Source: a virus
Virus record (IMG/VR): IMGVR_UViG_3300025853_000045
Span: 26,953-90,952 of that record
Reading direction: 5' to 3' (one strand)
DNA: 64,000 nt
Below are positions 8,738 through 52,476 of the stretch, in pieces. Under the pieces are notes generated by a model. It saw nothing but the letters and a program-made list of their open reading frames with translations. It ran no database searches and was not told the origin of the DNA. The position numbers and the translations under genes are program-made. Position 1 is the first letter of the stretch, and each line of letters begins with the position of its first letter.

Positions 8738-9037
8738 TCAACCACCTCGACAAATAGGGCAGGGGTCGCCTTCAATTTGGCCCTTCCCTTGACAAGCGGG
8801 GCAGTTAGCATCACCGCTTGGTTGTTCAGTCATAAACCCTTGAAGAAATTGCATCATCTCGCGATTTTCGTCGGGCGTAAGAGGTGCGCGCAAGTTGGCA
8901 GGTTTTTGACAATGGTGATTATTCAAACCGTTTTCGCCGTAAAAATAGCGTTCGCATTTAGGACATTGCACTTTGCGACCGCCGCGCCCCTCATCTCCGA
9001 GAGGCATGTTTTTCAAAAAAAGCCACCAATCGCTCAA
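8738..9037 (-). CDS. Zn-finger protein (CxxC...HHC plus DnaJ-type CxxCxGxG)
   Basis: CPKC...NNHHC and CPACQGKG...CPIC. Confidence 0.7.
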   Translation of the reverse strand: MSDWWLFLKNMPLGDEGRGGRKVQCPKCERYFYGENGLNNHHCQKPANLRAPLTPDENREMMQFLQGFMTEQPSGDANCPACQGKGQIEGDPCPICRGG

Positions 9038-10434
9038 TCTAACAACCCCGCCATTATGTCATCCAAGTCCACAATACGCTCACGGAACTCCGTTGTCGCC
9101 CAATGAGCCAACGCGAGAGCAATAGCAAAGTCGTCATGCCGACCGATGCTGTCAAGCCGTCCTTTCTTGCTCATACCGAACATCAGCAATTCACGTTCAA
9201 GTTCAGACGTGAGTGTACGAGAACGGTCGTCACCGTAAGGCAATCGTATTTGTTCATTCTCAAAACGCAACACCAACCCCATGAGTAGTGACTCGCGACG
9301 TTGCCGTGTGGATATGAATGTCTTAATTGGTAAGTCTGTATCCGCGCGTAGTTCTGTTGCGAAGACGCGTTGAAAGTTGTTGGCTTCAAGTTCGATGACG
9401 TCAGGATTGAATTTTGCATTCAAACGCTGTATCTCCATGATTTGCGTGCGGAAGTCCATGTTCTTACGACGAACCGCATGAACCATCTCAAGTAATTCAG
9501 GGTTGGTTGATGGACGTCGAAGAACGACCATCACGGTATAGTCAGCCGCGCGGTCTGATGAAATCGCGGGGTCCCAACCGATGAAGTATTGGTCGTCAGG
9601 GTCGCCTGTTTCACGTTCGATTAACCGAAGCGACGAATCTTTTGCCGCTTGAAGAACGGTGGATGGGAAGAGACTGCTAACGTCGTCCATTGGTTCACAT
9701 AGATATTCACGCGCAAATGCAATCGCGGGCATATCGTTTCGACGTGCATCAAGTGATTCTAAATCCCATCGTTCAGGCCACAACGCCTCACCTTTGCTGT
9801 TGATGGCAGGGTAAGTTTCGACAAGATACCCTTCGCGACTTTCCAACTCCGTGTAAAGGTCGGTCGGTGTAAACGGTGTTCCGACAATCATCAACTTGGA
9901 TGTGTGGTGAAGTGTAGGAACAAGGACTTCGTAAAACCACGAAGCGACGCGAGCGAGTTCTGTGTCGGTTGTTCCCCACAGAATGTCGTCGCATAGAATC
10001 AAGTCAGGGTGAATACCACGAATAGCACCACCAACCGACTTTGCGCTGATGTTTGAGCCGTTACTGAAACCAAAAAATGTCTTCGACCATGAGTCAGCCT
10101 TCTTCATTTTCGCGAGAAACGGCACACCATCAATCAAATCATTGAGTGTGCGCATGTGGTGAATGGACTGATGAAGACTGTGCGAAATCAAAACGGCTTT
10201 GGTCTTGGGATTGAATGCAGTCTTCCAAAGCATGTAGCCAAGAAACAACGTTGACTTACCGTGGTCACGCGCCGCTTTGACACAATATCGCTTTCGTGAT
10301 TCAAGGTTGTTATACCACTGCTCATGATGCCACGACAATTGAAACCCAAGAATCTCTTCAAAGAAGAATTTGAAGTCGCGCTTCGCTACTTCAAAATCAA
10401 TCTCTTCGATGGCTTCAAGGGATAACTGTTGCAC
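9034..10434 (-). CDS. terL: Terminase large subunit
   Basis: Walker A ARDHGKST, Walker B ILCDD, coupling motif VGTP, nuclease IGWDPA and HDDFAIALALA. Confidence 0.95.
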   Translation of the reverse strand: MQQLSLEAIEEIDFEVAKRDFKFFFEEILGFQLSWHHEQWYNNLESRKRYCVKAARDHGKSTLFLGYMLWKTAFNPKTKAVLISHSLHQSIHHMRTLNDLIDGVPFLAKMKKADSWSKTFFGFSNGSNISAKSVGGAIRGIHPDLILCDDILWGTTDTELARVASWFYEVLVPTLHHTSKLMIVGTPFTPTDLYTELESREGYLVETYPAINSKGEALWPERWDLESLDARRNDMPAIAFAREYLCEPMDDVSSLFPSTVLQAAKDSSLRLIERETGDPDDQYFIGWDPAISSDRAADYTVMVVLRRPSTNPELLEMVHAVRRKNMDFRTQIMEIQRLNAKFNPDVIELEANNFQRVFATELRADTDLPIKTFISTRQRRESLLMGLVLRFENEQIRLPYGDDRSRTLTSELERELLMFGMSKKGRLDSIGRHDDFAIALALAHWATTEFRERIVDLDDIMAGLLD

Positions 10435-13864: not shown

Positions 13865-15090
13865 CCTATTCCACCTCTCCTGACATACAAGTCGTATGCG
13901 TGTGCGCCCCATCGCGTCGCATCGTCATCAGGGTCGGTCTCGGTTGGACCTGTTGGATTTGATGTCTCCCCACCTGACGAATTCGGTGTGGACGTTTTAT
14001 CTTCTTTATGCATCATGCGTCGCAACAAACGATTCAATTTGTCCATCAACGTTCGATATTCAATCCTATCGCGAGGTGATATACCTACCTTGACTTTCTG
14101 TGCGCGTCCTTTCATGAATTCTTCGGAAGCGAGAATCGAATCCGCACCACCCGCAAGTGAAGTTGCTTCTGTCATTTCTTGACCCATTGGTGTTGGTGCT
14201 GTGCGCGGTTGCCGAGTTGCTTTGCTGTGCAACTTCTTACGACCGCGACCGCGAGGTGGTTTTGTCAATCGAGACATCGGAGACATCGTTGGGATAGGCG
14301 GTGTAATGTCCTGCGTTGGTTGTGTTTGTCGAATTTGTTGTCGTGCCGCTTCCGCTTCGCGTTGTCGTGGGTCAGGATATGCTTGTTTAGCACGCGAACG
14401 GCCTGTCGCACCACCGACACGGATAAATCGGGTTGGCTGACGGTATGTGTATCCTGTTCCAAACGAAGCATACGGAGCGCGAGCGGCAGAAAGGGCTGAC
14501 ATACTCCCCATCTGTCGAACGTTTCCTGCTTTGAGCGGAATACCGCTTCCTTTTCTTCGCCTTCGACGCTTGAGTGATTCGACGGTGACGTTTTTCCTCG
14601 CTTTACGCTTCTTACCTGTTTTCGCTCTCGCTCTCGCTCGTATTGTTGAAATCGTCGTTGTCTTCTGTGGTTTTTCGTCGTCGTATTTTGGCTTGTCGCG
14701 TTTTTTGCGAATCATTTCAAACGCGTCGTCGATGTAATCCGTCGTCGAGAGCATGATGTTCGCACCGAGACCACTCGCGTTCGGATTCGCACCGTCGATA
14801 GCCTCGCTTTGTCCGACCTGTCCTGTCATTTGACCAAGTTCAGCCTGTTGCTTCATATCGCTGTCTTCTTCATCGTCAGGATTCTTTTGAGGAATCTTAA
14901 TTTTCATATGTTGAAGACCTTGCAATTTGCGTGCGCGCTTATCTTGTTCTTCACGCTTCTTTGCATCGTGAAGTGCGCGCTCTTCGGAGTCTTCGCGACC
15001 AACCGATGAATCTTCTTGCAATTCTTCCGCGCTTTGACGCGGATTGAATCGAAAACCTGCGGTGCTTCCTGTTCCCGCAGTTCCAACCAC
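13861..15090 (-). CDS. Hypothetical Arg/Lys-rich protein (409 aa), possible DNA-condensing internal protein
   Basis: Long ORF with strongly basic low-complexity tracts. Confidence 0.75.
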   Translation of the reverse strand: MVGTAGTGSTAGFRFNPRQSAEELQEDSSVGREDSEERALHDAKKREEQDKRARKLQGLQHMKIKIPQKNPDDEEDSDMKQQAELGQMTGQVGQSEAIDGANPNASGLGANIMLSTTDYIDDAFEMIRKKRDKPKYDDEKPQKTTTISTIRARARAKTGKKRKARKNVTVESLKRRRRRKGSGIPLKAGNVRQMGSMSALSAARAPYASFGTGYTYRQPTRFIRVGGATGRSRAKQAYPDPRQREAEAARQQIRQTQPTQDITPPIPTMSPMSRLTKPPRGRGRKKLHSKATRQPRTAPTPMGQEMTEATSLAGGADSILASEEFMKGRAQKVKVGISPRDRIEYRTLMDKLNRLLRRMMHKEDKTSTPNSSGGETSNPTGPTETDPDDDATRWGAHAYDLYVRRGGIG

Positions 15091-15758
15091 TATTCGTCAC
15101 CGCCCATCAATTTGTTACGAAGGCGCGCCCATACTTCAGGGCTTTCTTTCGCCAATTCAACTTTGAGGATGTTGATGGTTTGAGCGTTCATGGTTTCGTT
15201 CGTGCTTCCTGCCGCACGTTCTTGGACGCGCACGATGTCTTTCACCGTCTCACGCACTTCTTTGTGTAACGAAACAATGTTACGAACGTATTGAGGGTCG
15301 TTGCGGTCAGCATCGTCAAGAAAGTGACCTAATTCACCGTTGATTCGTGCTAAATTGTTACGCAAAGACTCCATCTCCTGCCCTGCTTCAACGATGATGA
15401 GGTCAGCCGCACCTTTTTGCACAACAGGCTTGAGGTGGTGTTTAAGATGATGATATACGTTTGATTCAGGAATTTGGAGGTCGTCAGCGATTTGTTGGGT
15501 TGTCATTGATAAGTTGAAATACGCTTGCTCAAGGTTTTCGCGCTTTGGAGAAGTGCAAAAACCGCATTGACTGTTGCTCGCCATGTGATACTCGCCCATA
15601 TGGTTACGAAAATGACGGTCAGCCGTTCCTTCACGCCATCCCATATCACTATCCATATCTTTCGCGGTCATCATTCCGCTCTTCATCATCTCTTCCAAAG
15701 AGTCGCGACCCTCGTCCTGACAGAATTTGCAAGAAGCACGCGATATACGCTCCGCCAT
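15090..15758 (-). CDS. Tandem Zn-finger/HTH protein with a coiled coil; candidate terminase small subunit
   Basis: Two CxxC...HxxxH units (CKFC...RHFRNHM; CGFC...HHLKHHL). First gene of the run that contains terL. Confidence 0.5.
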   Translation of the reverse strand: MAERISRASCKFCQDEGRDSLEEMMKSGMMTAKDMDSDMGWREGTADRHFRNHMGEYHMASNSQCGFCTSPKRENLEQAYFNLSMTTQQIADDLQIPESNVYHHLKHHLKPVVQKGAADLIIVEAGQEMESLRNNLARINGELGHFLDDADRNDPQYVRNIVSLHKEVRETVKDIVRVQERAAGSTNETMNAQTINILKVELAKESPEVWARLRNKLMGGDE

Positions 15759-15783
15759 AGCAAAGACCAAGTAGCCGTATCAA

Positions 15784-16104
15784 ATGAGTGTTTCTATGCG
15801 AGAGAGGCTTCGTCGTTCACCTAAAATAGCAGGTGTTCCGCTTTCAAAGAATACAGCAAAGAGTCTTTCTCGCGCCGCTATGGATATTATCAAAAACAAC
15901 AAGGCTGACCTCACAGAACGAGAGCGTCGTTACAATATATGCCAACAATGCCCTGAACGGCGACACGACCGATGCGGATTGTGTGGTTGTTTTATCAAAA
16001 CAAAGACGATACTGCTCAACAGCGAATGCCCTATTGGTAAATGGTCAACCTTGTTGTCCGAGTCGTCGGTAAATCATTCCCGTCGCGCTGAACGAGACGA
16101 ATAG
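15784..16104 (+). CDS. Cys-rich protein (DUF6171-like)
   Basis: RYNICQQC...CGLCGCFIKTKT...CPIGKW pattern. Lone plus-strand gene; 60-bp convergent overlap with 16045-16278. Confidence 0.7.
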   Translation: MSVSMRERLRRSPKIAGVPLSKNTAKSLSRAAMDIIKNNKADLTERERRYNICQQCPERRHDRCGLCGCFIKTKTILLNSECPIGKWSTLLSESSVNHSRRAERDE

Positions 16105-16278
16105 TGCGCCGATAACCCAACTTAAGTCGGTTGAAGTCATTTGTGGTCCTGAAAAGACCAAGATAAGAAAGCAACCAAGCGTCAATGTGATAAGTTGAAC
16201 CATAATCATGTCAACAATAACTGATTTGCGCAAATTTGTCATATCGCTGATGGTCGTGTATAGCGAAGAGATGTCCAT
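16045..16278 (-). CDS. Small two-TM membrane protein (77 aa), holin-like size
   Basis: GGAGG RBS before ATG 16278; hydrophobic segments MIMVQLITLTLGCFLILVF and WVIGALFVSFSATGMIY. Confidence 0.75.
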   Translation of the reverse strand: MDISSLYTTISDMTNLRKSVIVDMIMVQLITLTLGCFLILVFSGPQMTSTDLSWVIGALFVSFSATGMIYRRLGQQG

Positions 16279-16279
16279 A

Positions 16280-16861
16280 TCATCGACCTCCTGCCATTCC
16301 GCGCATGAACGAACCGATGCCACCACCAACGTTCTGTAACATGCCGGGGTCCGCGAGAGCGTTATCCAACATACCTTGTAACGAACTTTGGTTTGCGATT
16401 TGCACCATTTGTTGGAATTGCATGTTTGTTTGTTGAACATTGTTGGATGCTTGATTGAGTATTTGCGTTTGCGCCATCGTGACGCTATCAGCAGTCGGTA
16501 ATCCCTGCACACCGCTAAAATCGAACGTATATCCGTTGTCCTTTTCGACCAATTTCGCGTTTGATAGCATTGTGTGGACAGAAACAGCAACAAGACTGCT
16601 CAAAAGCGAGATAAGCATGTTCATATTTGCGCCGTTGTTGTCCGATAACCACTTGTCGATGAGAGGATTGCTTGTTATCATCGCGGACAAAATATCCATT
16701 TCTGACGGTGGTGGAGGTGGCGCATAGGGGTTGTATCCCCCATTTTGCGTTCCATTCGTGATTTGATACGGAACTTGTTGCTGTCCGCTCGGTAATCCGA
16801 GATTCAACGCGCCATTTTGTTGTTGCGCGGGTTGGTTATTGTTGCTAAAAGGCCACACCAT
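16280..16861 (-). CDS. Gln/Asn/Pro-rich protein with a hydrophobic helix (GTPase operon)
   Basis: MVWPF N-terminus, YNPYAPPPPP, MLISLLSSLVAVSV, amphipathic C-terminus. Confidence 0.8.
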   Translation of the reverse strand: MVWPFSNNNQPAQQQNGALNLGLPSGQQQVPYQITNGTQNGGYNPYAPPPPPSEMDILSAMITSNPLIDKWLSDNNGANMNMLISLLSSLVAVSVHTMLSNAKLVEKDNGYTFDFSGVQGLPTADSVTMAQTQILNQASNNVQQTNMQFQQMVQIANQSSLQGMLDNALADPGMLQNVGGGIGSFMRGMAGGR

Positions 16862-16870
16862 GATACAACC

Positions 16871-17752
16871 TCACGCTACACCATCATTTGATTCTGTCGG
16901 TAAAGGAAGAGGGGCGGTTTGTTGCTGTGCTTGATGTATCGCGAGCGCATCAAACAACAACCGCGCATTGTTCCCTGCTTGAAATTGACGCATATCAAAC
17001 ACAATCATCACTAAATCATTCATTCCTGTCGCGGTATTGGTTAAATGTGTGACAGGAATGTTATCTTGTTTGAGCATTTGAAAGAATGGCTCATATTTAG
17101 CGAGTATTGGAGGTGTGTTGTCCTTCTTTTTGATGCTACTGATTGGCACAGCAACGGTCGAAACACCCTTTTTCAACTTCGCTTTAAGCGTCCCACCGCT
17201 CGCTTCCTCTTCTTTCTCGTCTTCTTTCTCCCATTTCGTCAACAAATGATACAAATGAAGGTGTTCAGGGCAGTATGTTGCGCGCAATTTACGCCCACTT
17301 GTGACTTTTTCGCGTGCTACAAAGGCTTCAACCTCGCCTGTTACAGGGTTTTTGAAGTACAAATCCCACAACGTTTGACCTGTTTCTTCGTCTCCAACCT
17401 GCTCGTAAATGTTCCCTGCATGTCGTAAAAGGTGTTCAACATCGCATCCGTCAACGCAACATCGCATTGTGTTGGTATTGTAACGATATTTACCGCCCCA
17501 AATGCGTTTGAGAGAGAAAATTGACCTTTTTGTGGGTTTCAAGAGGCGATATGCTTGCTTTATGTCCTTTCTTCGCGCTTTTTTGGGGTTTGGGTGCTGT
17601 GAAGGGTAAAAATTGACCTGCGGAACTTCGATATGTTGGCTCGCATTGCTCATCGCGGCCTGTGCGGATGCCTGTTGTTGCATCTGTGCGAGGCTCATTT
17701 GTGTCTGTGCGGCGAGGCGTAAGAGGTCGTTTTGAGGGGTATTACCAAGCAT
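16871..17752 (-). CDS. Hypothetical protein with a putative Zn site (GTPase operon)
   Basis: CCVDGC...YCPEHLH; directly downstream of the GTPase. Confidence 0.8.
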   Translation of the reverse strand: MLGNTPQNDLLRLAAQTQMSLAQMQQQASAQAAMSNASQHIEVPQVNFYPSQHPNPKKARRKDIKQAYRLLKPTKRSIFSLKRIWGGKYRYNTNTMRCCVDGCDVEHLLRHAGNIYEQVGDEETGQTLWDLYFKNPVTGEVEAFVAREKVTSGRKLRATYCPEHLHLYHLLTKWEKEDEKEEEASGGTLKAKLKKGVSTVAVPISSIKKKDNTPPILAKYEPFFQMLKQDNIPVTHLTNTATGMNDLVMIVFDMRQFQAGNNARLLFDALAIHQAQQQTAPLPLPTESNDGVA

Positions 17753-17756
17753 TTTA

Positions 17757-18479
17757 TCACCAATTTAGCATTTCAATCAACGTTTTTTCCACATTCCAAC
17801 CAATTTTCGTCGCCATCATGCTAACGCGACACGGAATACCTGCTTTTTGAAGCCTCCGCATGGCAGGACGGTGCGAATCGAACACTTTATGCTCGCGTAA
17901 TCGGTTGGATTGCCACAAAATGTTCGCATTATCATCCCACCACTCGTCCGCTTTGTTCGCGACGAGCCATATTTGCTTCGGAGCGTAGCGTTTTCCGCGC
18001 AATCTTGTCAATAATGAGCGGTATCTCCACCGTTTTTCAATCAACGAGTCGGTGAGATACTCAAAACCACCGATTGCGTCAATAACTTCGGCTCCTTGTC
18101 CTTTCAAGACGCGCGTATCTGTCATAAATATGACAATTTCGACTTGTCGGTCAACCATATCGTCAATCCACAAGTTCCAAAAGCGTTGCTGACCGCCAAT
18201 ATCAGACGAATGTACCACTCTTTTCTCCCCCTGCCATCGAATTCGCTTTCGCGTGGCTTTTGGTAAGACGTATCCGCCACCGATAAGGCGTTTTGCGTGC
18301 ATTGTGCGGTCTTCGATGTCGTCCATTTCACCCGGAGTGCGCATAAATTGGTCGAGCGTGGTTTTTCCAACGCGAGTTGGACCGTAAACACCAATCCTGC
18401 GTGGTTTTACGAAGTTATACAACTCCTTACCGTAAACAATCGCGCCCATAAGTGCGCTTCCTGCTACTGTTCCGACCAA
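17757..18479 (-). CDS. Arf/Sar-like small GTPase (Ras superfamily)
   Basis: G1 GPTRVGKTT, G3 DIGGQ, post-switch-II FWNLW, IVIFMTD, G4 LVANKAD, G5-like MMATKIG; hydrophobic N-terminal helix. Confidence 0.9.
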   Translation of the reverse strand: MVGTVAGSALMGAIVYGKELYNFVKPRRIGVYGPTRVGKTTLDQFMRTPGEMDDIEDRTMHAKRLIGGGYVLPKATRKRIRWQGEKRVVHSSDIGGQQRFWNLWIDDMVDRQVEIVIFMTDTRVLKGQGAEVIDAIGGFEYLTDSLIEKRWRYRSLLTRLRGKRYAPKQIWLVANKADEWWDDNANILWQSNRLREHKVFDSHRPAMRRLQKAGIPCRVSMMATKIGWNVEKTLIEMLNW

Positions 18480-18716
18480 TCATTCCACCCATCCGCGTAT
18501 TTTATTGAAAAACCACTCAACTGTGTTCTCCCAAATGCTTACATCGGTTGCTTGTTCAAACCATGATACACCAAGAGCCGTTGAAAAACCAACGATGATG
18601 CATAAAACCAACGCTTTACCGCGTTCGTAGTAAGTGTCGAGTGTGTTTTGAGTATGTAAAGCGCGCAACGTTGCTTCCGTAGCATCATCTGATGGGGTTT
18701 TGAACAACCAACCCAT
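18480..18716 (-). CDS. Small single-TM membrane protein (78 aa)
   Basis: AGGAGTGA RBS; MGWLF start; TM ALVLCIIVGFSTALGVSWF. Confidence 0.8.
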   Translation of the reverse strand: MGWLFKTPSDDATEATLRALHTQNTLDTYYERGKALVLCIIVGFSTALGVSWFEQATDVSIWENTVEWFFNKIRGWVE

Positions 18717-18721
18717 AACGT

Positions 18722-19243
18722 TCACTCCTTTTTCTTGTCTTTCGCGTATGTCCCGTCAGCGTTTCGCTTACGACCACCGCTCAAATTAAGTGGTTCTTTC
18801 TTTTTTGCTTTGTGTTGAGGCGCGTCAGGCTCATAATCAACATTCATCAAATCGAGATACTGCTGAACTTCGGGGTCTTTCTCCAACTCTTCAAGTTGTT
18901 TCGCGAATGCGACCTCTTGTTTCTTGATTTCAACGTCCATTTGAGCCTTAGCAAACCGCATTTGTTGGTTTTGCATCTGTCGTGTCATGCTTCGTTGCAT
19001 GTTTGAAATAACAGCGCGCTGGTCCATACCATCTTGTGCTATCATCTTGTAAATAAAATACGACATGCCCTGTAATGTGAATGCGCCCATCATGTATGTT
19101 ATCGCGTTTGTTTGTGTTGAATCATCTTTCAGCCATAGCCCTGCGTCAAAGACTGCAATCGCGGCTCCAACGAGTATAGCGACGAAAGAAATCAGTCCGA
19201 ATACTCTCAATTCATCTTTATTTTGTGGCGTTCGCTCTTGCAT
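18722..19243 (-). CDS. Two-TM membrane protein with a C-terminal coiled coil
   Basis: GGAGG RBS; VFGLISFVAILVGAAIAVF and ITYMMGAFTLQGMSYFIY; Q/K/E-rich coiled coil. Confidence 0.85.
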   Translation of the reverse strand: MQERTPQNKDELRVFGLISFVAILVGAAIAVFDAGLWLKDDSTQTNAITYMMGAFTLQGMSYFIYKMIAQDGMDQRAVISNMQRSMTRQMQNQQMRFAKAQMDVEIKKQEVAFAKQLEELEKDPEVQQYLDLMNVDYEPDAPQHKAKKKEPLNLSGGRKRNADGTYAKDKKKE

Positions 19244-19304
19244 ATCAAACAACCTCCATACATACCGCGTGACGCGAGCGATACATAAGCATGTTGATTC
19301 ACCT

Positions 19305-19378
19305 CTTTATTGATATTATCATATTATTATTACAACAATATAGTATATTATCATTATAAGAAAAATATGATATTATTG
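19305..19378. promoter_or_regulatory. AT-rich (TAT)n/(ATA)n island upstream of the GTPase operon
   Basis: Extremely AT-rich tract sharing TAGTATATTAT and TTATAAG words with the islands at 28.9, 47.8 and 58.7 kb. Confidence 0.55.
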
Positions 19379-22300
19379 AGAATCATCTTCTCCCAATTGC
19401 GGCACGTTCGGTCGAGGGAAAAGTTGGAATTGCGGCAACCCTGCCGTTTCAAGTTGCTGTTGTGGTGTCATTGGGATTCGCGGTGATGGCATTTGAGATA
19501 CCGTCGTTGGTTGCTTTTGCGGTGCGACAGGAGGCGCAAGTGATACAGGGCGTTGTGCTGTTGATTGTATCGGCGTTCCCGCGTGCCTTCGGTGCGCTAT
19601 CGAATCGTATATATGTAAATCATCGAAGCGACCGTGTTGCCATGTGGGGTGGAAACCGTTGATGCCTTTTATCACGTTTTCAAATTCTTTCATTTCGGCT
19701 TGATTCAATTTTCCTTCTGATGCCGCTTGCGACACCTCTTCGGCTGACGCGAATCCACCCTTTTCCATCAAGTCCATCATTTTTTGGTCATAAACGACAT
19801 TTGGCGTATATTCGTGTTCAGCCACTTTCCACATCAAGTCGTGCATTTGTTTGTCTTGTTGTCGCGCTTCTTCGGATGCGCTGTAATTGACAGCGACGCT
19901 TTCTTTGAAGACTTGTTGCGCGTTTGGAATGGAGTGCGGTGTTACGTCGGCAGGTTTAGCGTCGTTCAAAATTTCTTCTTTGAAATCATCACCTTTCAAA
20001 CCTGCAACCTTTTTCGACATCGTTAATTTCTTTTCCATATCGTTCTCATCTTGGAATCCTAACATTCGCGCGGCTTCGTTGTAGGCTTGAGTCATGAGGG
20101 GGGTATCGTTTTGTATGAGTGTCAGGAAGTTACCCGGCGACATGCGCGTGTCAGCCGACAATCCAACTCTTTTGTTCGCGGACACAATCTTTTCGTGCAA
20201 TCCAACGTGGGACAATCCGTCGTATTCTTCACACAACTGTTTCAAACCTGTCAAAAGCGCGAATTGATGCCACATTGGTTTGACTGCGTTTCGGACTTCT
20301 GCATTGTATTCCGCGTCTAACCCTTTTCGCTTAACAGGGCCGTGAACGTATTCTCCTTCCTTTAAATCGCGTGAGAAGTATAAATTGCGCTTCGATTGTT
20401 TCATTTGATTTTTAATTTCGTCAGTCCATGTAGGTTCGGCTGATGACGTCTCGACATTTTCAAAATCGACTCTTCGGTCAGCATCAAATCCGAATTCATC
20501 CAACAACGCTGACAAAGCAGGGTGCGACATCTTGGTCAGTTTTTGCTTCACCATCGGTGTGTATTTCACACCTTTTTCTCGCGCATCGTTGGCTTCTTTG
20601 TCATCAGCGCGTCCTGTGGTGACAAGATTCAACATTTTGTTGGCTTCTTCTTCGTCGAAGCCACTCTCGCCCGTATGACGATTCCATGCTTGAGTGAATT
20701 CAGGTGAGTGTCGGAACAAATGAAGAACGTCTTCGACGTCCATAACGTAAGGCTTACCTGCGTTCTTAGGATGAAAAATTTCTCTTAGCGACTCAAACGG
20801 TGTTTGAAAACGCCCATGTTCATAGATGAGTGAACTATATTCCGAAGGATTGTCTCCCCTTAATCGACCTTCTTTGTCCACGCTGAATTGTTGTTTTTCA
20901 CTTCTTACAAGATGACGTGTCGCGTAATCGTGAAGTCGTTCCATTGCTTCCGACACTTCATGCTCTTCGTCTCCGTGAGACATGGATTTGTCAGGGTGGT
21001 TGAGAACCGTGTTGAGCAATTCAAGAACTTCATCTTTGTCTTGACCATTTTCAATAGCCGTGTTCGCCATGTTACTTGCGCGCACTTCAATCATGTTTTC
21101 GTGATACGCTCTCATCAGCGCGTCACTCTTTACTTCGCTTTCAGGTAATTGGTCGATACCTGCTGAATCTTGCGGTTGTTGTGCGAGCCGCTCAATTGCG
21201 TCTTCCATTGAAGCAGGAGCCATCTGACGAGGCGATGCGTCTTCTTCTCCTTGTTCGGCTCTAAATTGCGCAACAAGGTCTTGGAACGTCTTTTCTCTTC
21301 TTCGCGCTTCGTCTCCGCCACCGTAACGCTTTGCGTTCAATTCTCGGATTGTTCCCATGTTGGTCAAAGGTGCAAACATACCTCTCGCGACGTTGTCTTT
21401 GAACACCTCAAGTGCCATACTTTTTGTCGAAGGGCGTCCTTTGACACCCATAACTCGACCCAACTTTTCTTGAAGTGTGTCGGTTGTAAACGATTTACCA
21501 TGATGAGGATTGTGTCGTTCACCTTCATATGAGTGTTCGACACCATTATCATCGACCATTGAATATCCCTTGAGCCAATCGTCGTCGTCAGGGTGAAGAA
21601 TGCCGTGTCCGTGACATTGCGAACAAACACCGTCAGCACACCGTCCTGTGGGCGAATCTTCGTTTTCGTGGTCGCAATCAGGGCAAGTGACGTGATGATG
21701 TTCGTGTGGCTCTTTTCGCGAACCTTCAAAATTTTCTTTGTTTGGTGGGCGCAAGTGTTTTCTGATGTGTTCTCTCATCGCTTTACTTTGAGGGTGCGCG
21801 TTGCGAAGTAGTGGATTATGGGCGCGTATGTAGGATATTGCATCATTCATAGTGACGGCTCGATTACCACCACACGTTCCGCACGCAGTCGCACCACCGC
21901 GAGAAAATGGCACGTCGAACGATTCACCGTTTTTAATTCGCTTAAGTTCTTCATCGGTGTAATGACTGTTTTGAATGGCTTTTGCAATCTCGTTTTCAGT
22001 CATCTCTTTTTCTTCTTCTTCTATGGTTTTGTTGCCCGTCAAAATATCCAAGCGCGCTCTTGTCATATCAGCCTCGTTGTATTGAGCATCAAGAATAGCG
22101 TTCATTTGTTTGCGCGAAAGTCCGCGCTTGTTGTATTTACGACTGTGGGCTTGCAACACAGCCATGTCAGAAAGATTTGGTAAGTGCTTGTTGTTGTCCA
22201 TGAACGTGAGACCTGTTCCACCACTTGCGCCCATTTGACCCACCATGTATTCGTCAGGTGCATACAAAGTTGATTGGCGCGTATTGCCCTCTCCGTCAGC

Positions 22301-25300
22301 CATGAAGACAGTCGAAAGAGGGAAGCCATCGTCGCCTGTGTAAAGTTGTTCACGCAACTTAAGAAGCATGTTGAGTTGCTTCTTTTCGTCTTTTTCTTTG
22401 AGAATAGGCGCGAGAAGGTTTTCGTATTTTTTCTTCTTTTCGTTGTATGACATGCAATTGACCAATGCACCAAGCGCGTATTCGTTTCGTCGCTTGTTGT
22501 ATTCTTCGTCGTTTCTGACGATTTCAGTCTTTGATTCAATGCCGCTTATTCGATTCTTCATTCTCTTGAAGTAATCGGCAGGATTCTTCACACCATCCCT
22601 GAATGCTTCCTTTTCAAAGAACAACGTTTTACCTGCTTGGAGGAACGAGTTCTTAGGAACTTCGGTAAATCGAATTGCACCGCGCCCCGCCTCAACATTC
22701 TCAATCAACGGTTTGTCGAGAACGAGACGGTAATTTTCACCTTGTTTTCGCGGTGGGCGACTGTCGACGATGCGATAGGTCTGATTACTCAAGTGACTCA
22801 GCGACCCTACGGTGATTTGAGAGTCGCCAATTTTGATGTTATGAAGACCCATAGCATATCGCGGAATCTCAATCTCTCTTTGCCCCATTTGAGCGTCCTG
22901 CACCATATCGACATGTCCGTCGCGTATAGCGTGCAATCTTTCGTTGAGTTCATCCGCGTGTTGTTGTGCTATCGCCGCCTTTTGTTGCATCGCGATTGCG
23001 TGTCCTTTAGGATTAACTTTTTCCTGCAAATTACCGCTTTCGACGCGCTTACCGAACTCTTTGTTCCACGCATCCATCGCGAGTTGATAACGTTCTTCGA
23101 TACCACCCAAGTGTTCTTGAAGCATCTGATACCGACGCAACTTTGCTTCGTTCTTTTTGGCGAGATTGATGTCTTTGCTGTTGTTTACAATGAACTTCTT
23201 GATGTCGCTTCTTCCTTTGAAATCTTTGACTTTGTAATTGTATTTCTTTTTACCCTCTTTGTATTGGTATTTGCCGTCTTCGACGTCGTTCATAATCTCC
23301 AACGCTTCAACAAGACCACCCATTTGCGCGTTGAACAAATTGTCCAATCGCAACTGTTCACGTTCTTCGTCGCCCATGAAATTTGAACCCGCAATATGTC
23401 CAATCGCGACACGTTGCGCGGCAGAACTTCTCGCTCCACCCATCGGTTGAATTTTTTCATCTTTGAATTTGATGCCCGGAAATTCAACGTCCAAATCTTC
23501 AATTTTTTCGTTGTATTTCAGCGCGGCTTTGCGTATTTGATTCTTGATTTCTCGACGAACACCGTCGCGACCACCCTGATAGTATTTCGCTTTACGTTCC
23601 AATTTGCTTTTGAATGTGCTAAATTCAGTTCCTTCACCCAACACATGATGTGCAATCTTAGCCAACGACGTTTTGCTTTCATCGTCAGAAAACAACGGAA
23701 TGTATTCGTCTTCGTTCGTTAGTGTATTGAAGATGAAATCGAGTTGCGGAACCATGACACGCTTGTGTTTTATCGACGATGTGCGTGCGCCGTCGCGAGC
23801 CATCCTCGCCTCTTCAGGCGTCGACGATGAAAAATGCTTAGGGTGACACGCAACACATTGCTCTTCATCGTCAATGATTTTTTCTTTGCGCTTATCAGGT
23901 AAGCCTTCCAATTCTTCTCCTTCTTTTGGTTTCGCGTTGTGATGGTCGATGTGTCGCTTTGTTTGCGCTATTCTTTCTTCGTAGCGCGCTGTATTCTCAG
24001 CGTGTGCATCGTTCATTCGCTTGATAGCATACATTGTTCGCAACGCCGCACCTTTCGTTATGTCGCCGCCCAACTTACCAAACATGCTCGCGAATGCTTG
24101 GTCGAATCCTTCTTTTGTAAATCCTGAATTTGCATAGCGCGCTCCCATATCAGCAATGTCGATGGGGTCAATGCCGAATTGTTCAGCGATGTTGCGCAAC
24201 TCTTCTGCGTCTCTCGCCGCTTTGTTGAGGAATTGTTGCGTGACCCCTGCTTCAAAACATGTGTTGTATCGCTCAATGTTCTTTTCAGATTGCTTGTTTA
24301 ATGCTGATTCAGGGTCGTCAGCGTTTACTATTTGATTCATATTGTAAATGTCTTCGGTGTTGAGATTCAAGTCCATAATTTCTTTTAACGACAGACCGCT
24401 TTTCCTCAACTTCCCTCTCACTTGAACAACGCGACGATTCGCTCCAACCAAATCATCCATGAACTTCGATGCTTCTTTGATGATTTGAATTTCGTCGAGT
24501 TTATGATACGGGTGGCCTTCAGGGAAGTCATCTCCGTGAGGAATTTCGCTGAAATACGTCGGACGATAGTCTCCTGTGACGTCGTTCAACACTTGGTCGC
24601 GAAGGTAATTGTATTCATCTCGACCACCTTCAAACATGTCGTTTTCCAACATGAAATCTAAATCGAGAAGACGGCTATCTTGCGCGACTGTTGCTTGTCC
24701 TCCACCACGTCTCGTTGATGCAGTATAACGCCCCAACTTGGTCTGCTTTACACCACCTTTCGTTCCTTTTACTTCACGTTGCATTTCTTCAACAGAAGGA
24801 AGATTGGCTGTTTCACCGCGCGCACTTCTATCTCCACCACGTTCAGTTCGCTCCTGCAAACCAACGTCTTTGATGTCGGCTGACACTCCCACTTCAGGCA
24901 TTTTCGCTTTGCTATCCACTTCATCTCCCAACTGATACAGAATGCCTTCATCTAAAGCAGTAGCAAGAGCAGGGTGCGCTTCCATTTCATTATCGAATTG
25001 AGGCGGGTCGCGTGCAATTGCGCGTCGATTCTTTTCGCTGTTCGGTGCGTCTCCGCGTAAGAAAAATTCCGTCATACCATCAGGTGCGTTTGGTCGCGAT
25101 TCCAACGTCACACCCATCTTACGCGCCTGTTCGTAAAACGAAGGCGTAACGAAGTCGGGAGCCTTGATTGACGTTGCCGCACGACCAAAGCGTCCACCGC
25201 GTCCCGCAGTCCCGACAGCACGATTTTGTAGGAATACGCGCATGTGTTTGTTCAAATCTTCTTGAACCAACTGCACCGCTTCTTTGACGTCAGATAGACC

Positions 25301-26296
25301 TTCGTCCTTCGCTTTACGGTCAATCAACCGCTTCCATTTGTTCATTTCTTTCGCTTTACCCGCATACACTTCGCCGGGTCGGAATACAGGGCTTGAGAAA
25401 ACCTGTTGTTCATACAACTTCTTTGCTCTATCAAGGTCAGCGCGCACTTTTCGCGGCTCATCAAAATATGCCGCCTGTTCTTCAGGCGTTTTGTATTGCG
25501 CGCTAAAGTCTTCACGGTTTGGTTTGGCTTGAGTGACACCTTCCAACATGCTTTGCGGTATGTCGCGCAATGACTTTCGACCCGACACTCTTACCATCGA
25601 ACCTTTCTTTGGTCGCTCTTTGAATTTGCCAAGACTGCGGAACGTTGTTTCACTCAACGGGTGTCGAGACTTTTCTTTGAAGTATTCCATCAACTTGTTT
25701 TTTCCTCGCGGCGAATCAGCGTTGTCAATCCATGCTGTGATGTCAGGTGGCACGCCATGTGTTTTCATTCGCTTCCCTAATTCACCGTTGTCTTGTTCGT
25801 CGATGTCTTTAATGAACTGCAACTCTTGACCGTCTAACGGTTCGCGACCGAGCAAATCCGCTTCTTTTTCTAAAAATTCTTCGCTTTGAAAGTGTTCAAT
25901 CATCTTGTCGAGTGAATCAAGAACGCGCTTCGTAATAATCGGAACAGACATCATGCTCGGTATTGCGATGTCACCCTCTTCATCAAGCACTTCGCTGTAT
26001 CGTTGGTCTTCGTCAAGACCCAATTTATCAGCCAACATATTGTTGTTCGCGAAAAGAATGTCGTCGTAAAGTTCACCGAAGTCAATGTCACCGACTTCTG
26101 TAAATTCATCGTCGTCTTCTTCACCTTCTTTCCAGCGCGGAGGATTTTTCATCAATTTTTCCATGTATCGCGCCATGAGCCTGTCAGCCAACTGTTGATT
26201 GGTTGGTGCTGTGCGCCTCATACCACGCTTGAATCGTCGGACGGTGTCCTCTTCCTCTTCTTCGTCGGCCTTGATGATACGGACAAAGCGACGCAT
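19373..26296 (-). CDS. Giant hypothetical protein (about 2307 aa), probably virion-internal, with CxxC Zn motifs
   Basis: Single open frame; start moved to MRRFVRIIKAD (26296) to avoid overlap with the divergent gene; CVAC, CGTC, CPDC and CSQCHGHG. Confidence 0.85.
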   Translation of the reverse strand: MRRFVRIIKADEEEEEDTVRRFKRGMRRTAPTNQQLADRLMARYMEKLMKNPPRWKEGEEDDDEFTEVGDIDFGELYDDILFANNNMLADKLGLDEDQRYSEVLDEEGDIAIPSMMSVPIITKRVLDSLDKMIEHFQSEEFLEKEADLLGREPLDGQELQFIKDIDEQDNGELGKRMKTHGVPPDITAWIDNADSPRGKNKLMEYFKEKSRHPLSETTFRSLGKFKERPKKGSMVRVSGRKSLRDIPQSMLEGVTQAKPNREDFSAQYKTPEEQAAYFDEPRKVRADLDRAKKLYEQQVFSSPVFRPGEVYAGKAKEMNKWKRLIDRKAKDEGLSDVKEAVQLVQEDLNKHMRVFLQNRAVGTAGRGGRFGRAATSIKAPDFVTPSFYEQARKMGVTLESRPNAPDGMTEFFLRGDAPNSEKNRRAIARDPPQFDNEMEAHPALATALDEGILYQLGDEVDSKAKMPEVGVSADIKDVGLQERTERGGDRSARGETANLPSVEEMQREVKGTKGGVKQTKLGRYTASTRRGGGQATVAQDSRLLDLDFMLENDMFEGGRDEYNYLRDQVLNDVTGDYRPTYFSEIPHGDDFPEGHPYHKLDEIQIIKEASKFMDDLVGANRRVVQVRGKLRKSGLSLKEIMDLNLNTEDIYNMNQIVNADDPESALNKQSEKNIERYNTCFEAGVTQQFLNKAARDAEELRNIAEQFGIDPIDIADMGARYANSGFTKEGFDQAFASMFGKLGGDITKGAALRTMYAIKRMNDAHAENTARYEERIAQTKRHIDHHNAKPKEGEELEGLPDKRKEKIIDDEEQCVACHPKHFSSSTPEEARMARDGARTSSIKHKRVMVPQLDFIFNTLTNEDEYIPLFSDDESKTSLAKIAHHVLGEGTEFSTFKSKLERKAKYYQGGRDGVRREIKNQIRKAALKYNEKIEDLDVEFPGIKFKDEKIQPMGGARSSAAQRVAIGHIAGSNFMGDEEREQLRLDNLFNAQMGGLVEALEIMNDVEDGKYQYKEGKKKYNYKVKDFKGRSDIKKFIVNNSKDINLAKKNEAKLRRYQMLQEHLGGIEERYQLAMDAWNKEFGKRVESGNLQEKVNPKGHAIAMQQKAAIAQQHADELNERLHAIRDGHVDMVQDAQMGQREIEIPRYAMGLHNIKIGDSQITVGSLSHLSNQTYRIVDSRPPRKQGENYRLVLDKPLIENVEAGRGAIRFTEVPKNSFLQAGKTLFFEKEAFRDGVKNPADYFKRMKNRISGIESKTEIVRNDEEYNKRRNEYALGALVNCMSYNEKKKKYENLLAPILKEKDEKKQLNMLLKLREQLYTGDDGFPLSTVFMADGEGNTRQSTLYAPDEYMVGQMGASGGTGLTFMDNNKHLPNLSDMAVLQAHSRKYNKRGLSRKQMNAILDAQYNEADMTRARLDILTGNKTIEEEEKEMTENEIAKAIQNSHYTDEELKRIKNGESFDVPFSRGGATACGTCGGNRAVTMNDAISYIRAHNPLLRNAHPQSKAMREHIRKHLRPPNKENFEGSRKEPHEHHHVTCPDCDHENEDSPTGRCADGVCSQCHGHGILHPDDDDWLKGYSMVDDNGVEHSYEGERHNPHHGKSFTTDTLQEKLGRVMGVKGRPSTKSMALEVFKDNVARGMFAPLTNMGTIRELNAKRYGGGDEARRREKTFQDLVAQFRAEQGEEDASPRQMAPASMEDAIERLAQQPQDSAGIDQLPESEVKSDALMRAYHENMIEVRASNMANTAIENGQDKDEVLELLNTVLNHPDKSMSHGDEEHEVSEAMERLHDYATRHLVRSEKQQFSVDKEGRLRGDNPSEYSSLIYEHGRFQTPFESLREIFHPKNAGKPYVMDVEDVLHLFRHSPEFTQAWNRHTGESGFDEEEANKMLNLVTTGRADDKEANDAREKGVKYTPMVKQKLTKMSHPALSALLDEFGFDADRRVDFENVETSSAEPTWTDEIKNQMKQSKRNLYFSRDLKEGEYVHGPVKRKGLDAEYNAEVRNAVKPMWHQFALLTGLKQLCEEYDGLSHVGLHEKIVSANKRVGLSADTRMSPGNFLTLIQNDTPLMTQAYNEAARMLGFQDENDMEKKLTMSKKVAGLKGDDFKEEILNDAKPADVTPHSIPNAQQVFKESVAVNYSASEEARQQDKQMHDLMWKVAEHEYTPNVVYDQKMMDLMEKGGFASAEEVSQAASEGKLNQAEMKEFENVIKGINGFHPTWQHGRFDDLHIYDSIAHRRHAGTPIQSTAQRPVSLAPPVAPQKQPTTVSQMPSPRIPMTPQQQLETAGLPQFQLFPRPNVPQLGEDDSQ

Positions 26297-26368
26297 TGTT
26301 ATAGCGCACGACAACCATGCCCTTGAAGATAGCGGTATTTCTTTAATCGCGAATAGCATGCGTTGTTT

Positions 26369-26992
26369 ATGGGCGCGCCGTTTGCACAGTCTTGGGCGTT
26401 TCTCAAAGCCGAGGCTTACATCAATATGAATAGTGATGTTCACAATCAAACTATTGTTCCTCAAGTTGAGGGTGGTATGCATAGTCCAAAAGGCACTTTC
26501 ATCTCTTCACTACCGCGCTATCAACAACCAAGACCCGATGGACCAAATTACCGACGCGGGGGTTCAGTTCCGCGTAATTGGGATGAAAAACACGGCAATC
26601 AGCGATTTACGGGAGTGAATGTCGCTAACCAATGGCAACACCTTCGCGACGAAAATCCAACCGTTGACGAGGAAGAATTGCAAGATTCATTTGCTGATAA
26701 GTTCGCTACTGCTTCTGCACATGAGGATGTTCACGGTTTGACAGACGCCGAAATAGGCACATGGGCGGCACACGCGGTTGGTGGTTTCCCTGCCAATTTA
26801 GCGGCAACCAACTTTTCTGTTCCTAAAAATCGCGTAAAAGATTGGAAAACGCTTCGCGACATGGCTCATGAATATGGTGCTTACAGCCTAACTGAACCCG
26901 AAGCAAAGAAGCGGAAAATGGAGTATTACCACTTTGCTCCTTATTTGACGGGTGAAAAGGATATTTCAGAATTACATTCGGGTTCGCGTTAA
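26369..26992 (+). CDS. Putative zincin-type metallopeptidase
   Basis: HEDVH (HExxH) plus a downstream AHEYGAY glutamate; N-terminal PFAQSWAFLKA motif. Confidence 0.55.
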   Translation: MGAPFAQSWAFLKAEAYINMNSDVHNQTIVPQVEGGMHSPKGTFISSLPRYQQPRPDGPNYRRGGSVPRNWDEKHGNQRFTGVNVANQWQHLRDENPTVDEEELQDSFADKFATASAHEDVHGLTDAEIGTWAAHAVGGFPANLAATNFSVPKNRVKDWKTLRDMAHEYGAYSLTEPEAKKRKMEYYHFAPYLTGEKDISELHSGSR

Positions 26993-51705: not shown

Positions 51706-52476
51706 ATGAGTCTTGTTCAAGCAAAATTCGATACAGAATCTTTGTGTGCTTTCATCAACGGCTTCGGTGAAGGGGTCAACGACCTCCGATGTCAGATTGC
51801 TAACATGAAGATGACTGCTTCCGTTGATGTCGAGACACACTTCTTTAGGAATTCTGTTTCGATATTGATGACGTCAGATGGAGGTTCGTATAAGCAGGGC
51901 GATGTATTCATTCCCCAAATCGACAAGGTTGTTGCGTTCCTCAAATTCTGTGACAGAAAGACGCCTACGATGTTGCGTCATTCAGCGGGTATTCTTACCT
52001 TGAGTAACGGTGACGACACATACACAATACCAACGTATCGCGATGTGCTTTCATACGCAAGTGTGGAGCGCGCGCATTCAGCAATTGACAAAGCAAAGAA
52101 GAACAGTTGGGGTTTACTTGGTCGCGCGAAAATTCAAGCGCATGGCTCATTCATGATGAGTGAGTTGCATGGCCTTCAAACCATGACCAAAGCCACATCC
52201 AAAGATGCACCTGTCCGTGTGTCAGTAACCGATGGACAGATGAAAGTGTCAGCGGGTCAAGCAAGAGGCGCGCGTATGACAAGAGTCATTGAAACAAATT
52301 CAGAAACCACATGGGAAGATTGCGAATCAGTCTTCTCTTCTTCACTTCCTTCGTTGTTGAGGATTATGCCAAGCGGTGTTATCCATTACCACATGGGAGA
52401 AAAGAGTGCGTTGATTTTGGACAACCAAGACACAGGTGCGCTTCTTGTTTTGAAACATCAGGAGGGTGTTGATTGA
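51706..52476 (+). CDS. PCNA-like sliding clamp
   Basis: 256 aa with a two-domain alpha/beta periodicity; directly upstream of PolB and in the same operon as RFC. Confidence 0.6.
   Translation: MSLVQAKFDTESLCAFINGFGEGVNDLRCQIANMKMTASVDVETHFFRNSVSILMTSDGGSYKQGDVFIPQIDKVVAFLKFCDRKTPTMLRHSAGILTLSNGDDTYTIPTYRDVLSYASVERAHSAIDKAKKNSWGLLGRAKIQAHGSFMMSELHGLQTMTKATSKDAPVRVSVTDGQMKVSAGQARGARMTRVIETNSETTWEDCESVFSSSLPSLLRIMPSGVIHYHMGEKSALILDNQDTGALLVLKHQEGVD

Follow-up and report, generated by a model that had tools for sequence, protein, structure and literature searches.

Small GTPases that act as membrane switches are known from eukaryotic trafficking and from archaeal vesiculation, and virus-encoded members of the Ras superfamily are known from giant viruses of eukaryotes. 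Here we describe a block of six genes centred on an Arf-like small GTPase in a group-A-like magrovirus, a tailed virus of archaea. Few groups of viruses rival the magroviruses in abundance in surface seawater; the archaea that they infect, Marine Group II or Poseidoniales, are uncultured. The block lies at positions 16045-19243 on the minus strand of a 64,000-nucleotide stretch of DNA (positions 26,953 to 90,952 of the IMG/VR record IMGVR_UViG_3300025853_000045), and this whole stretch is referred to below as the window. The genes are named g1 to g6 in the order in which they are read, with the GTPase as g3, and together they are called the cassette. An earlier note on this DNA had suggested that they form a GTPase-controlled machine for lysis, budding or vesiculation, or that they build a membrane-bound compartment for replication or assembly.

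Several described systems can be set beside this locus. Bacteriophage lysis cassettes, such as S-R-Rz/Rz1 of lambda and Y-K-lysA-lysB-lysC of P2, resemble it as compact late sets that include small proteins with one or two transmembrane (TM) segments and charged cytoplasmic tails. The holin-cassette trait of a small membrane protein with a charged tail is found in g1, g2 and g6, and it is a generic, weak one. Unlike those sets, the cassette contains no endolysin or hydrolase domain and no holin or spanin match in Pfam, PHROGs or NCBIfam, and we know of no lysis cassette that holds a GTPase and two soluble orphan proteins. The resemblance is limited to layout. The Rab, Ras and Ran GTPases of giant eukaryotic viruses (Nucleocytoviricota) are likewise virus-encoded members of the Ras superfamily. 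They are recent captures from eukaryotic hosts and remain close to cellular Rab, Ras and Ran, whereas g3 belongs to an archaeal tailed virus, has no close cellular relative and comes with membrane partners of its own.

In archaea, the ArvA-ArvB-ArvC (OapABC) operon encodes a vesiculating GTPase together with ArvB, a DUF2073 protein, and ArvC, a DUF2072 Zn-ribbon protein (PMC10927574). As in the cassette, a small Arf/Ras-type GTPase is encoded with conserved partners, one of them Cys-rich, at an archaeal membrane. The ArvABC set has no integral membrane partners, whereas the cassette has three. Neither DUF2073 nor DUF2072 was detected in g1, g2, g4, g5 or g6 (Pfam, E <= 1), and the parallel with ArvA drawn in the earlier note therefore holds for functional logic only and does not extend to the neighbouring genes. 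The cassette and its GTPase go unmentioned in three papers on magroviruses (PMC5434244, PMC10160649 and PMC11706807; the supplements of 2017 aside) and in a review of archaeal virus egress (PMC10791045), in keeping with the view that no such module had been described in a tailed virus. In the last of the three papers (PMC11706807), holins are reported only for the Adrikavirales, which are not magroviruses, and a holin/LytA-like pair is described.

A conserved block of six genes

The cassette opens with g1 (18722-19243), which encodes a membrane protein of 173 amino acids (aa), followed by g2 (18480-18716), encoding a 78-aa single-pass membrane protein that begins MGWLF. The GTPase gene g3 (17757-18479; 240 aa) starts with TTG. 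Next are g4 (16871-17752), for a 293-aa soluble orphan protein with a Cys/His motif, and g5 (16280-16861), for a 193-aa protein rich in Gln, Asn and Pro that begins MVWPF and contains YNPYAPPPPP. Finally, g6 (16045-16278) encodes a 77-aa membrane protein with two TM segments. These calls draw on open reading frames (ORFs), hydropathy and homologues for g1 and g2, on hydropathy and homologues for g6, on the ORF and a hidden Markov model (HMM) for g5, on an alignment and an AlphaFold (AF2) model for g4, and on the G1-G5 motifs and an AF2 model for g3. All six are co-directional on the minus strand, and the gaps between them are 5, 0, 4, 9 and 1 nucleotides (nt), which bears out the tight packing proposed at the outset. 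The sequence GGAGGT stands 8 nt before the start codons of both g1 and g6, the second copy lying within the end of g5.

Further evidence for these genes as a unit comes from related viruses. The reference set consists of 80 IMG/VR loci that were found with the GTPase, at 56-97% GTPase identity. In these, g4 and g6 are present in all 80, g2 in 79, and g1 and g5 in 78 each. Their order and strand never vary, and a gene for a helix-turn-helix (HTH) protein comes after them. Against three relatives, the ratio of nonsynonymous to synonymous substitution (dN/dS) was 0.03-0.12 across all six genes, a sign of strong purifying selection, with 0.03-0.10 for g1 and 0.07-0.11 for g2. These low ratios, and an order kept in 78-80 of the 80 loci, identify the six ORFs as real genes and not chance ones. 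The six genes are a conserved block that is inherited together.

The region upstream of g1 (19244-19372, minus strand) is non-coding, and the AT-rich element that the earlier note had placed before the cassette is indeed there: of these 129 nt, the distal 60 or so are very AT-rich. About 50 nt upstream of the g1 start, after the AT-rich stretch, is the sequence GGTGAATCAA-N4-CTTATG, and the GGAGGT ribosome-binding site follows it. Both GGTGAATCAA and the TTAT box are common to close relatives, and the composite motif is unique in the window. From these features, 19244-19372 may contain an archaeal promoter. Scanning for sigma-70 promoters and terminators has little meaning in an archaeal virus, and the outcome was set aside. 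Within the leader of g1, a mini-ORF of 15 codons (19245-19292) was considered as a further gene and rejected, its ATG being lost in the closest relative (L048).

Recurrence in other virus lineages

Beyond the reference set, versions of the cassette were found in three further lineages, designated here by type. Contigs of the P0123 type, which reach 97 kb, carry all six genes and the HTH gene (HMM matches at E about 1e-18 for g5 and about 1e-5 for g6). Those of the P0125 type, of up to 110 kb, carry g1, g2, the GTPase, g4 and a g5-like protein beginning MGLFG, placed after a thermosome gene. Homologues of g1 are recognizable in both types (HMM E 3e-17 to 1e-6). In an example of this third lineage (L164:4250-9305), the cassette stands directly downstream of the thermosome gene and is followed by a gene for an 808-aa protein with a C-terminal TM helix.

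A group-B-like lineage (P0144 type), for which 80 loci were kept from 140 matching stretches, has a five-gene version, in which a 2-TM and then a 1-TM protein are followed by the GTPase and by homologues of g4 and g5. Here the cassette lies between the gene for an SU10-type major capsid protein (MCP) and a Phage_tube_2 tail tube gene, and g6 is absent from these loci. Examples such as L088:5222-8123 (and L081-L160) are marine viral contigs of 70-100 kb. The group-A and group-B forms of g4 are homologous at an hhalign probability of 91.8% (E 7e-7) and share the C...C and MRGTYC-x2-H motifs; g5 is recovered in the group-B-like loci with an HMM at E 5e-7. The same comparison for g1 and g2 detected no homology between the groups (hhalign probabilities below 1%), and these are treated as positional and topological analogues only.

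Judged by these profile comparisons, GTPase-g4-g5 is the homologous core that recurs in four virus lineages, and the small membrane proteins keep their position and predicted topology between lineages while their sequences turn over. The neighbouring genes differ. In the window, a gene for a giant protein lies upstream and the arm with the HTH protein and terminase downstream; in group B the neighbours are the MCP and tail tube genes, and in the P0125 type the thermosome gene. Since the core is found behind membrane proteins of like topology next to such different neighbours, the block travels as a whole.

Outside of these viral contigs the cassette is scarce. No tblastn match to it was obtained in the GenBank phage collection, and among 185,579 species genomes the viral GTPase occurs only on three small contigs of metagenome-assembled genomes (MAGs; L161, L162 and L163) at 55-57% identity. 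The MAGs are labelled Promethearchaeati, Maricaulis and Parvibaculum, none of them Poseidoniales, and the three contigs are probably viral ones misbinned into unrelated genomes. The synteny anticipated in the earlier note is therefore present across magrovirus-like contigs but was found neither in the GenBank phage collection nor in any Poseidoniales-labelled MAG among the species genomes searched.

A divergent Arf-like GTPase

The g3 protein has a full set of GTPase motifs: G1 GPTRVGKT at residues 33-40, G3 DIGGQ at 93-97 with Trp104, G4 NKAD at 175-178 and G5 MAT at 222-224, together with Thr59 (or Thr48) between G1 and G3. In alignments of 18 sequences, G1 (GxxxxGKT), the Asp and Gly of G3 and the Asn-Lys of G4 are invariant, and Asp178 of G4 is nearly so (at least 90%) in one alignment. 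The G3 signature reads DIGGQQRFWNLW in the window, with D-x-G-G followed by R99, F100, W101 and a nearly invariant W104. The switch I region contains a TPGEM motif and then a conserved RT-x-H across 18 orthologues, and the MAT of G5 reads ISA in distant relatives.

These features can be compared with those of the Arf family (Arl8, Arf1, Arl1/2/3, Sar1 and SR-beta). Complete G1-G5 motifs and DIGGQ with a Trp at +7 are shared; D-x-G-G-Q with a Trp seven residues on is what we take to be the Arf consensus signature. An F-x-x-D-x-R strand after switch II is shared as well, and an N-terminal helix directly before beta-1, as in the Arf family, is predicted with low confidence. The differences are insertions in g3 between G2 and G3, between G3 and G4 and between G4 and G5, and an N-terminal segment that is more hydrophobic than the classical amphipathic helix.

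The AF2 model of g3 (predicted local distance difference test score, pLDDT, 71; predicted template-modelling score 0.71) runs from a helix at residues 3-24 directly into beta-1. The N-terminal helix (about residues 2-24) is modelled at pLDDT 45-58, and this hydrophobic segment, rich in small residues, is conserved in all lineages. Foldseek searches with the model recovered Rab, Ras and Arl structures at E about 1e-7. With VIA-align, the top structure was Arl8b (Z 13.0, root-mean-square deviation 3.0, 157 residues aligned), followed at Z 11.5-12.6 by Arl8a (12.6), an Asgard RagA-like protein, Arl2 (12.0), an Asgard Arf (12.0), Arf1 (11.9), Arl1 and Arl3. The Asgard ArfR proteins (e.g. GerdArfR1, PDB 8OUM) resemble the model at a Z of about 12. 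Rab6 (Z 10.7) and KRAS (Z 10.6) fell about two Z units under Arl8b, for a model with a pLDDT of 71, and in this model the ranking favours Arf, Arl and Rag. Among viral structures in BFVD, only the Rab, Ras and Ran proteins of giant eukaryotic viruses look like the g3 model (E 2e-7 and weaker).

Sequence searches place the protein at some distance from all catalogued families. The window g3 has no match to any Pfam GTPase family even at E <= 1, and a profile search of PDB sequences gave nothing usable. Of 18 distant full-length family members, eight match Pfam Arf (E <= 10) and three match SRPRB; only one, P0204, passes the Arf gathering threshold (36.2 bits against 22.3). A g3 profile run against 1.84 billion representative proteins produced only 85 matches, nearly all of them fragments or full-length members of the same family, and reached no cellular archaeal GTPase at E <= 0.001. 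Its weakest member is P0204 itself (E 7e-4), a Pfam Arf protein and the sole protein outside viruses that the profile recovers. A relative of P0204 lies on a metagenome contig of 44 kb with a non-viral appearance, where the nearest non-viral relative of the profile, a Pfam Arf protein of 233 aa, is encoded at L181:1489-2190; IS-transposase and tetratricopeptide-repeat (TPR) genes lie around it, with no cassette partners nearby. Scans of IMG/VR with P0204, P0154, P0126 and P0158 found no relatives, and no fused or longer forms of g3 were found, which is weak evidence. The only prior label seen is the automatic JGI name 'GTPase SAR1 family protein' on two clusters.

Judged by its motifs and profile matches, g3 is a genuine, very derived and virus-specific branch of the Arf-like GTPases, outside the strict Arf family, in which it is not filed because formal Pfam membership fails. 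The assignment in the earlier note of an Arf-like GTPase is upheld by the motifs, by the Arf matches of distant members and, narrowly, by the fold ranking, but the window protein itself stays below the Pfam Arf threshold.

Small membrane proteins

The TM calls come from a Kyte-Doolittle scan (a hydropathy script) combined with alignments. The g1 protein has a strong TM segment at residues 14-32, and a weaker conserved hydrophobic segment at about 47-68; a coiled coil follows, and the C-terminus is a basic tail. Its earlier description as a 2-TM protein with a coiled coil is thus secure for the coiled coil and for one TM segment; the second segment is weaker, though conserved. In g2, a single TM segment (35-53) separates a highly conserved acidic N-terminal peptide, MGWLFKTPSDDATEATLRALH, from a Trp-rich C-terminal tail. 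The g6 protein has two TM segments, the first of which contains an invariant Asp, and it ends in YRRL. No TM segment was detected in g3 or g4 by the Kyte-Doolittle scan, and g5 is probably not a membrane protein, so that g1, g2 and g6 are the cassette members that hydropathy assigns to the membrane. The count in the earlier note, which gave the cassette three of four clear TM proteins in the window, is approximate, as the remaining ORFs with high hydropathy scores mostly overlap longer ORFs on the opposite strand.

Topology was deduced from the charge around the TM helices (the positive-inside rule). On this basis, both termini of g1 are predicted to be inside, which puts its coiled coil and its basic tail on the cytoplasmic side; the N-terminus of g2, with its conserved acidic peptide, is likewise predicted to be cytoplasmic, as are both termini of g6. 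Given these topologies and a G domain that is necessarily cytoplasmic, all the conserved parts would lie on the inner face of the membrane. Such an arrangement fits a device that acts on the membrane from within, and not a receptor or an S-layer enzyme.

Probable soluble partners of the GTPase

The conserved core of g4 includes an invariant C98 and the motif C161-P-E-H164-x-H166-x-x-H169 (within an invariant TYCPEHLHLYH), along with a basic N-terminal segment, VNFYPS-H-NP-KAR--DIKQA--LL-PTKR. Residues 50-185 form the core of the AF2 model at a pLDDT of about 80-88. When this model was compared with solved folds, the best match in a wide VIA search was a spurious one to connexin (Z 4.7), and Foldseek gave only E > 0.1; no ArfGAP, GEF or Zn ribbon is recognizable in it. 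A search of the ESM Atlas gave no match and PDB sequence profiles gave none that was usable. The proposal that g4 is a Zn protein fares in two ways: the conserved Cys and His residues make Zn binding plausible, but the fold matches nothing known. We infer that g4 is a candidate regulator or effector of the GTPase.

The g5 protein is helical and of low complexity, with a conserved N-terminus (MVWPF or MGLFG) and a conserved Gly-rich motif at the C-terminus that ends in GGR. Its hydrophobic stretch is weak and not conserved, and from these features it is probably soluble or peripheral. The N-termini of g2 (18699-18716) and g5 (16847-16861) share a short conserved M-G/V-W/L-L/P-F motif (MGWLFK and MVWPF, with MGLFG elsewhere).

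Searches of Pfam, PHROGs and NCBIfam with g1, g2, g4, g5 and g6 returned only insignificant matches, and PDB sequence profile searches with g1 and g5 gave nothing usable. The earlier note had left room for the membrane proteins to be ordinary tail components; no cassette protein matched a tail protein or any other known virion component in Pfam, PHROGs or NCBIfam.

Proposed function and alternatives

An order kept in 78-80 of 80 loci, recurrence across lineages, tight spacing with internal ribosome-binding sites and the dN/dS values all argue that the genes form a GTPase-centred membrane module acting as one unit, which we regard as very likely. As to its job, egress or lysis through late disruption or remodelling of the host cytoplasmic membrane is our preferred assignment, held tentatively and at somewhat under an even chance. 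On this proposal, the cassette would encode one membrane-bound machine, a product of the late arm of this group-A-like magrovirus, with the GTPase tethered to the membrane through its N-terminal hydrophobic helix. Binding and hydrolysis of GTP would switch the assembly state of the holin-like g1, g2 and g6, in a cycle that is possibly tuned by g4 and/or g5, and the machine would time or execute the disruption or remodelling of the host cytoplasmic membrane through which tailed virions exit. The more specific idea, that an Arf-like GTPase gates holin-like proteins in place of control by holin concentration alone, and that a major group of archaeal tailed viruses leaves its hosts by this machine, is possible but doubtful.

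Several observations point towards egress. The cassette is co-directional with the late structural and packaging genes and lies inside them. In lambda and P22, multi-gene lysis cassettes of small TM proteins lie immediately upstream of the terminase genes, and in P2 such a cassette separates the head genes from the tail genes; the positions of the cassette in the window and in the group-B-like lineage match these. Fast sequence divergence at a kept position and topology is typical of holins, and the small membrane proteins of the cassette diverge fast yet keep their topology. The archaeal host has no murein wall, so that only the membrane (and S-layer) would have to fail for release. No other lysis candidate was recognized among the ORFs of the window that were scanned. 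Lastly, a 2024 review describes the egress players of archaeal tailed viruses as 'completely uncharacterized' (PMC10791045).

Other observations weigh against this interpretation. In Pfam, PHROGs, NCBIfam and PDB sequences, no cassette protein has a counterpart among known holins, spanins or lytic enzymes, and to our knowledge no GTPase takes part in any phage lysis system. In P0125-type viruses the cassette follows a chaperonin gene rather than structural genes, and the argument from position depends on an analogy with bacteriophages. The membrane topology comes from a simple hydropathy scan rather than from a dedicated predictor. Furthermore, many members of the g3 family have Glu, Asp, His or Ala in place of the G3 Gln, and for that reason switching and hydrolysis may be unconventional and depart from the Arf rule. 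Any function, whether lysis, budding, vesiculation or formation of a compartment, is here read from anatomy and gene position.

The same gene position can be explained in other ways. Placement of the cassette inside structural and packaging blocks in two lineages (ahead of the HTH, terminase and portal genes in the window, and between MCP and tail tube genes in group B) would also suit a membrane-tethered platform for morphogenesis, in which prohead initiation, packaging or head-tail joining takes place at a spot on the inner face that the membrane proteins designate together with the anchored GTPase. Prohead initiation in T4 is membrane-bound, through gp20 with the membrane protein gp40, and offers a parallel in principle; g5, helical and of low complexity with conserved termini, would be the scaffold-like, Q-rich component. 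We consider this unlikely, given that no cassette protein is similar to any head, scaffold or chaperone family, that the P0125-type cassette follows a thermosome gene, and that no tailed virus is known to assemble its capsid under the control of a GTPase. Ejection proteins carried in the virion are a further explanation that starts from position. Those of the podovirus P22 are encoded between head and tail genes, much as the group-B cassette is placed; g1, g2 and g6 would then be packaged and form a channel in the membrane of the next host, with the GTPase, g4 and g5 as assembly factors. The proteins are very small for such a role, however, all their conserved soluble regions are predicted to lie in the cytoplasm of the cell that makes them, and a GTPase has no obvious place in a virion, which makes this explanation very improbable.

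The nature of the GTPase raises a different prospect, namely that the module takes over the host membrane for purposes apart from release, such as vesiculation, a compartment for replication or assembly, a block to division, or superinfection exclusion, in the manner of Arf, Sar or ArvA. An Arf-like GTPase with a hydrophobic N-terminal helix is consistent with this, and in Haloferax the formation of vesicles is driven by ArvA together with ArvB and ArvC, of which the Zn-ribbon protein ArvC, encoded near the GTPase, is a loose parallel to g4 (PMC10927574). Against it, no neighbour has a DUF2073 or DUF2072 domain, the fold of g4 matches no GAP, GEF or Zn ribbon, and in three of the four lineages the cassette is co-directional with late genes and outside the replication arm. 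Tailed virions, moreover, need no membrane. Takeover of the membrane apart from release is likewise improbable in our view, to about the same degree as a morphogenesis platform.

Significance of the cassette

The cassette provides a concrete and testable candidate for the exit of archaeal tailed viruses. It is testable because it is small enough to be synthesized and because the G1, G3 and G4 motifs offer textbook positions for mutation. The g3 family adds a virus-specific and deeply divergent branch to the Arf-like GTPases, and its presence in archaeal tailed viruses indicates that small GTPases with dedicated membrane partners are not limited to the giant viruses of eukaryotes. If lysis is in fact gated by the GTPase, a virus of prokaryotes would be using the membrane-switch logic known from eukaryotic trafficking and archaeal vesiculation.

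Genomic context in the window

Other genes of the window identify the type of virus. The minus-strand arm carries the portal gene (4116-5945) and a T4-type large terminase gene (9034-10434), and the plus-strand arm carries genes for a family B DNA polymerase (PolB; 52473-54800) and a thermosome subunit (61095-62600), as well as a clamp-loader-like AAA ATPase, two SNF2/DEAD helicases and a PD-(D/E)XK nuclease. Philosof et al. 2017 (PMC5434244) describe group A magroviruses as having a head-tail module and an archaeal replisome, along with a thermosome and an SNF2 helicase. Because its gene content fits that description, the window is assigned to a group-A-like magrovirus. The cassette is co-directional with the structural and packaging arm and lies inside it, with the HTH protein, terminase and portal genes downstream.

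On its downstream side the cassette adjoins a plus-strand gene (15784-16104) that is convergent on g6 and encodes a Cys-rich DUF6171 protein of 106 aa (CxxC ... CxCGC ... CPxGKW; Pfam E 1.1e-6, 29.3 bits against a cut-off of 27). It overlaps the last 60 nt at the 3' end of g6 and occupies what appears to be a 274-nt gap after that gene, no co-directional gene following the cassette directly. By tblastn, the DUF6171 gene is found on the opposite strand in 79 of the 80 related loci. It is the downstream boundary of the cassette and stands outside the co-directional unit, which thus has a limit at either end: its own 5' region on one side, a convergent gene on the other.

Beyond this boundary, the minus-strand gene at 15090-15770 encodes the HTH protein. 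Its 226 aa include CKFCQ as an N-terminal Cys pair, an HTH_20/ArsR-like helix-turn-helix (E 2e-5) and a coiled coil. The gene comes after the cassette in all 80 loci and does so in the P0123-type lineage as well, and its product may be a late regulator or the small subunit of the terminase. Upstream, the cassette is preceded on the minus strand by an ORF of 2369 aa (19373-26482) with no family match. Its C-terminal 500 residues were detected in only 24 of the 80 related loci, at 20-79% identity, which indicates that this protein evolves far faster than the adjoining cassette.

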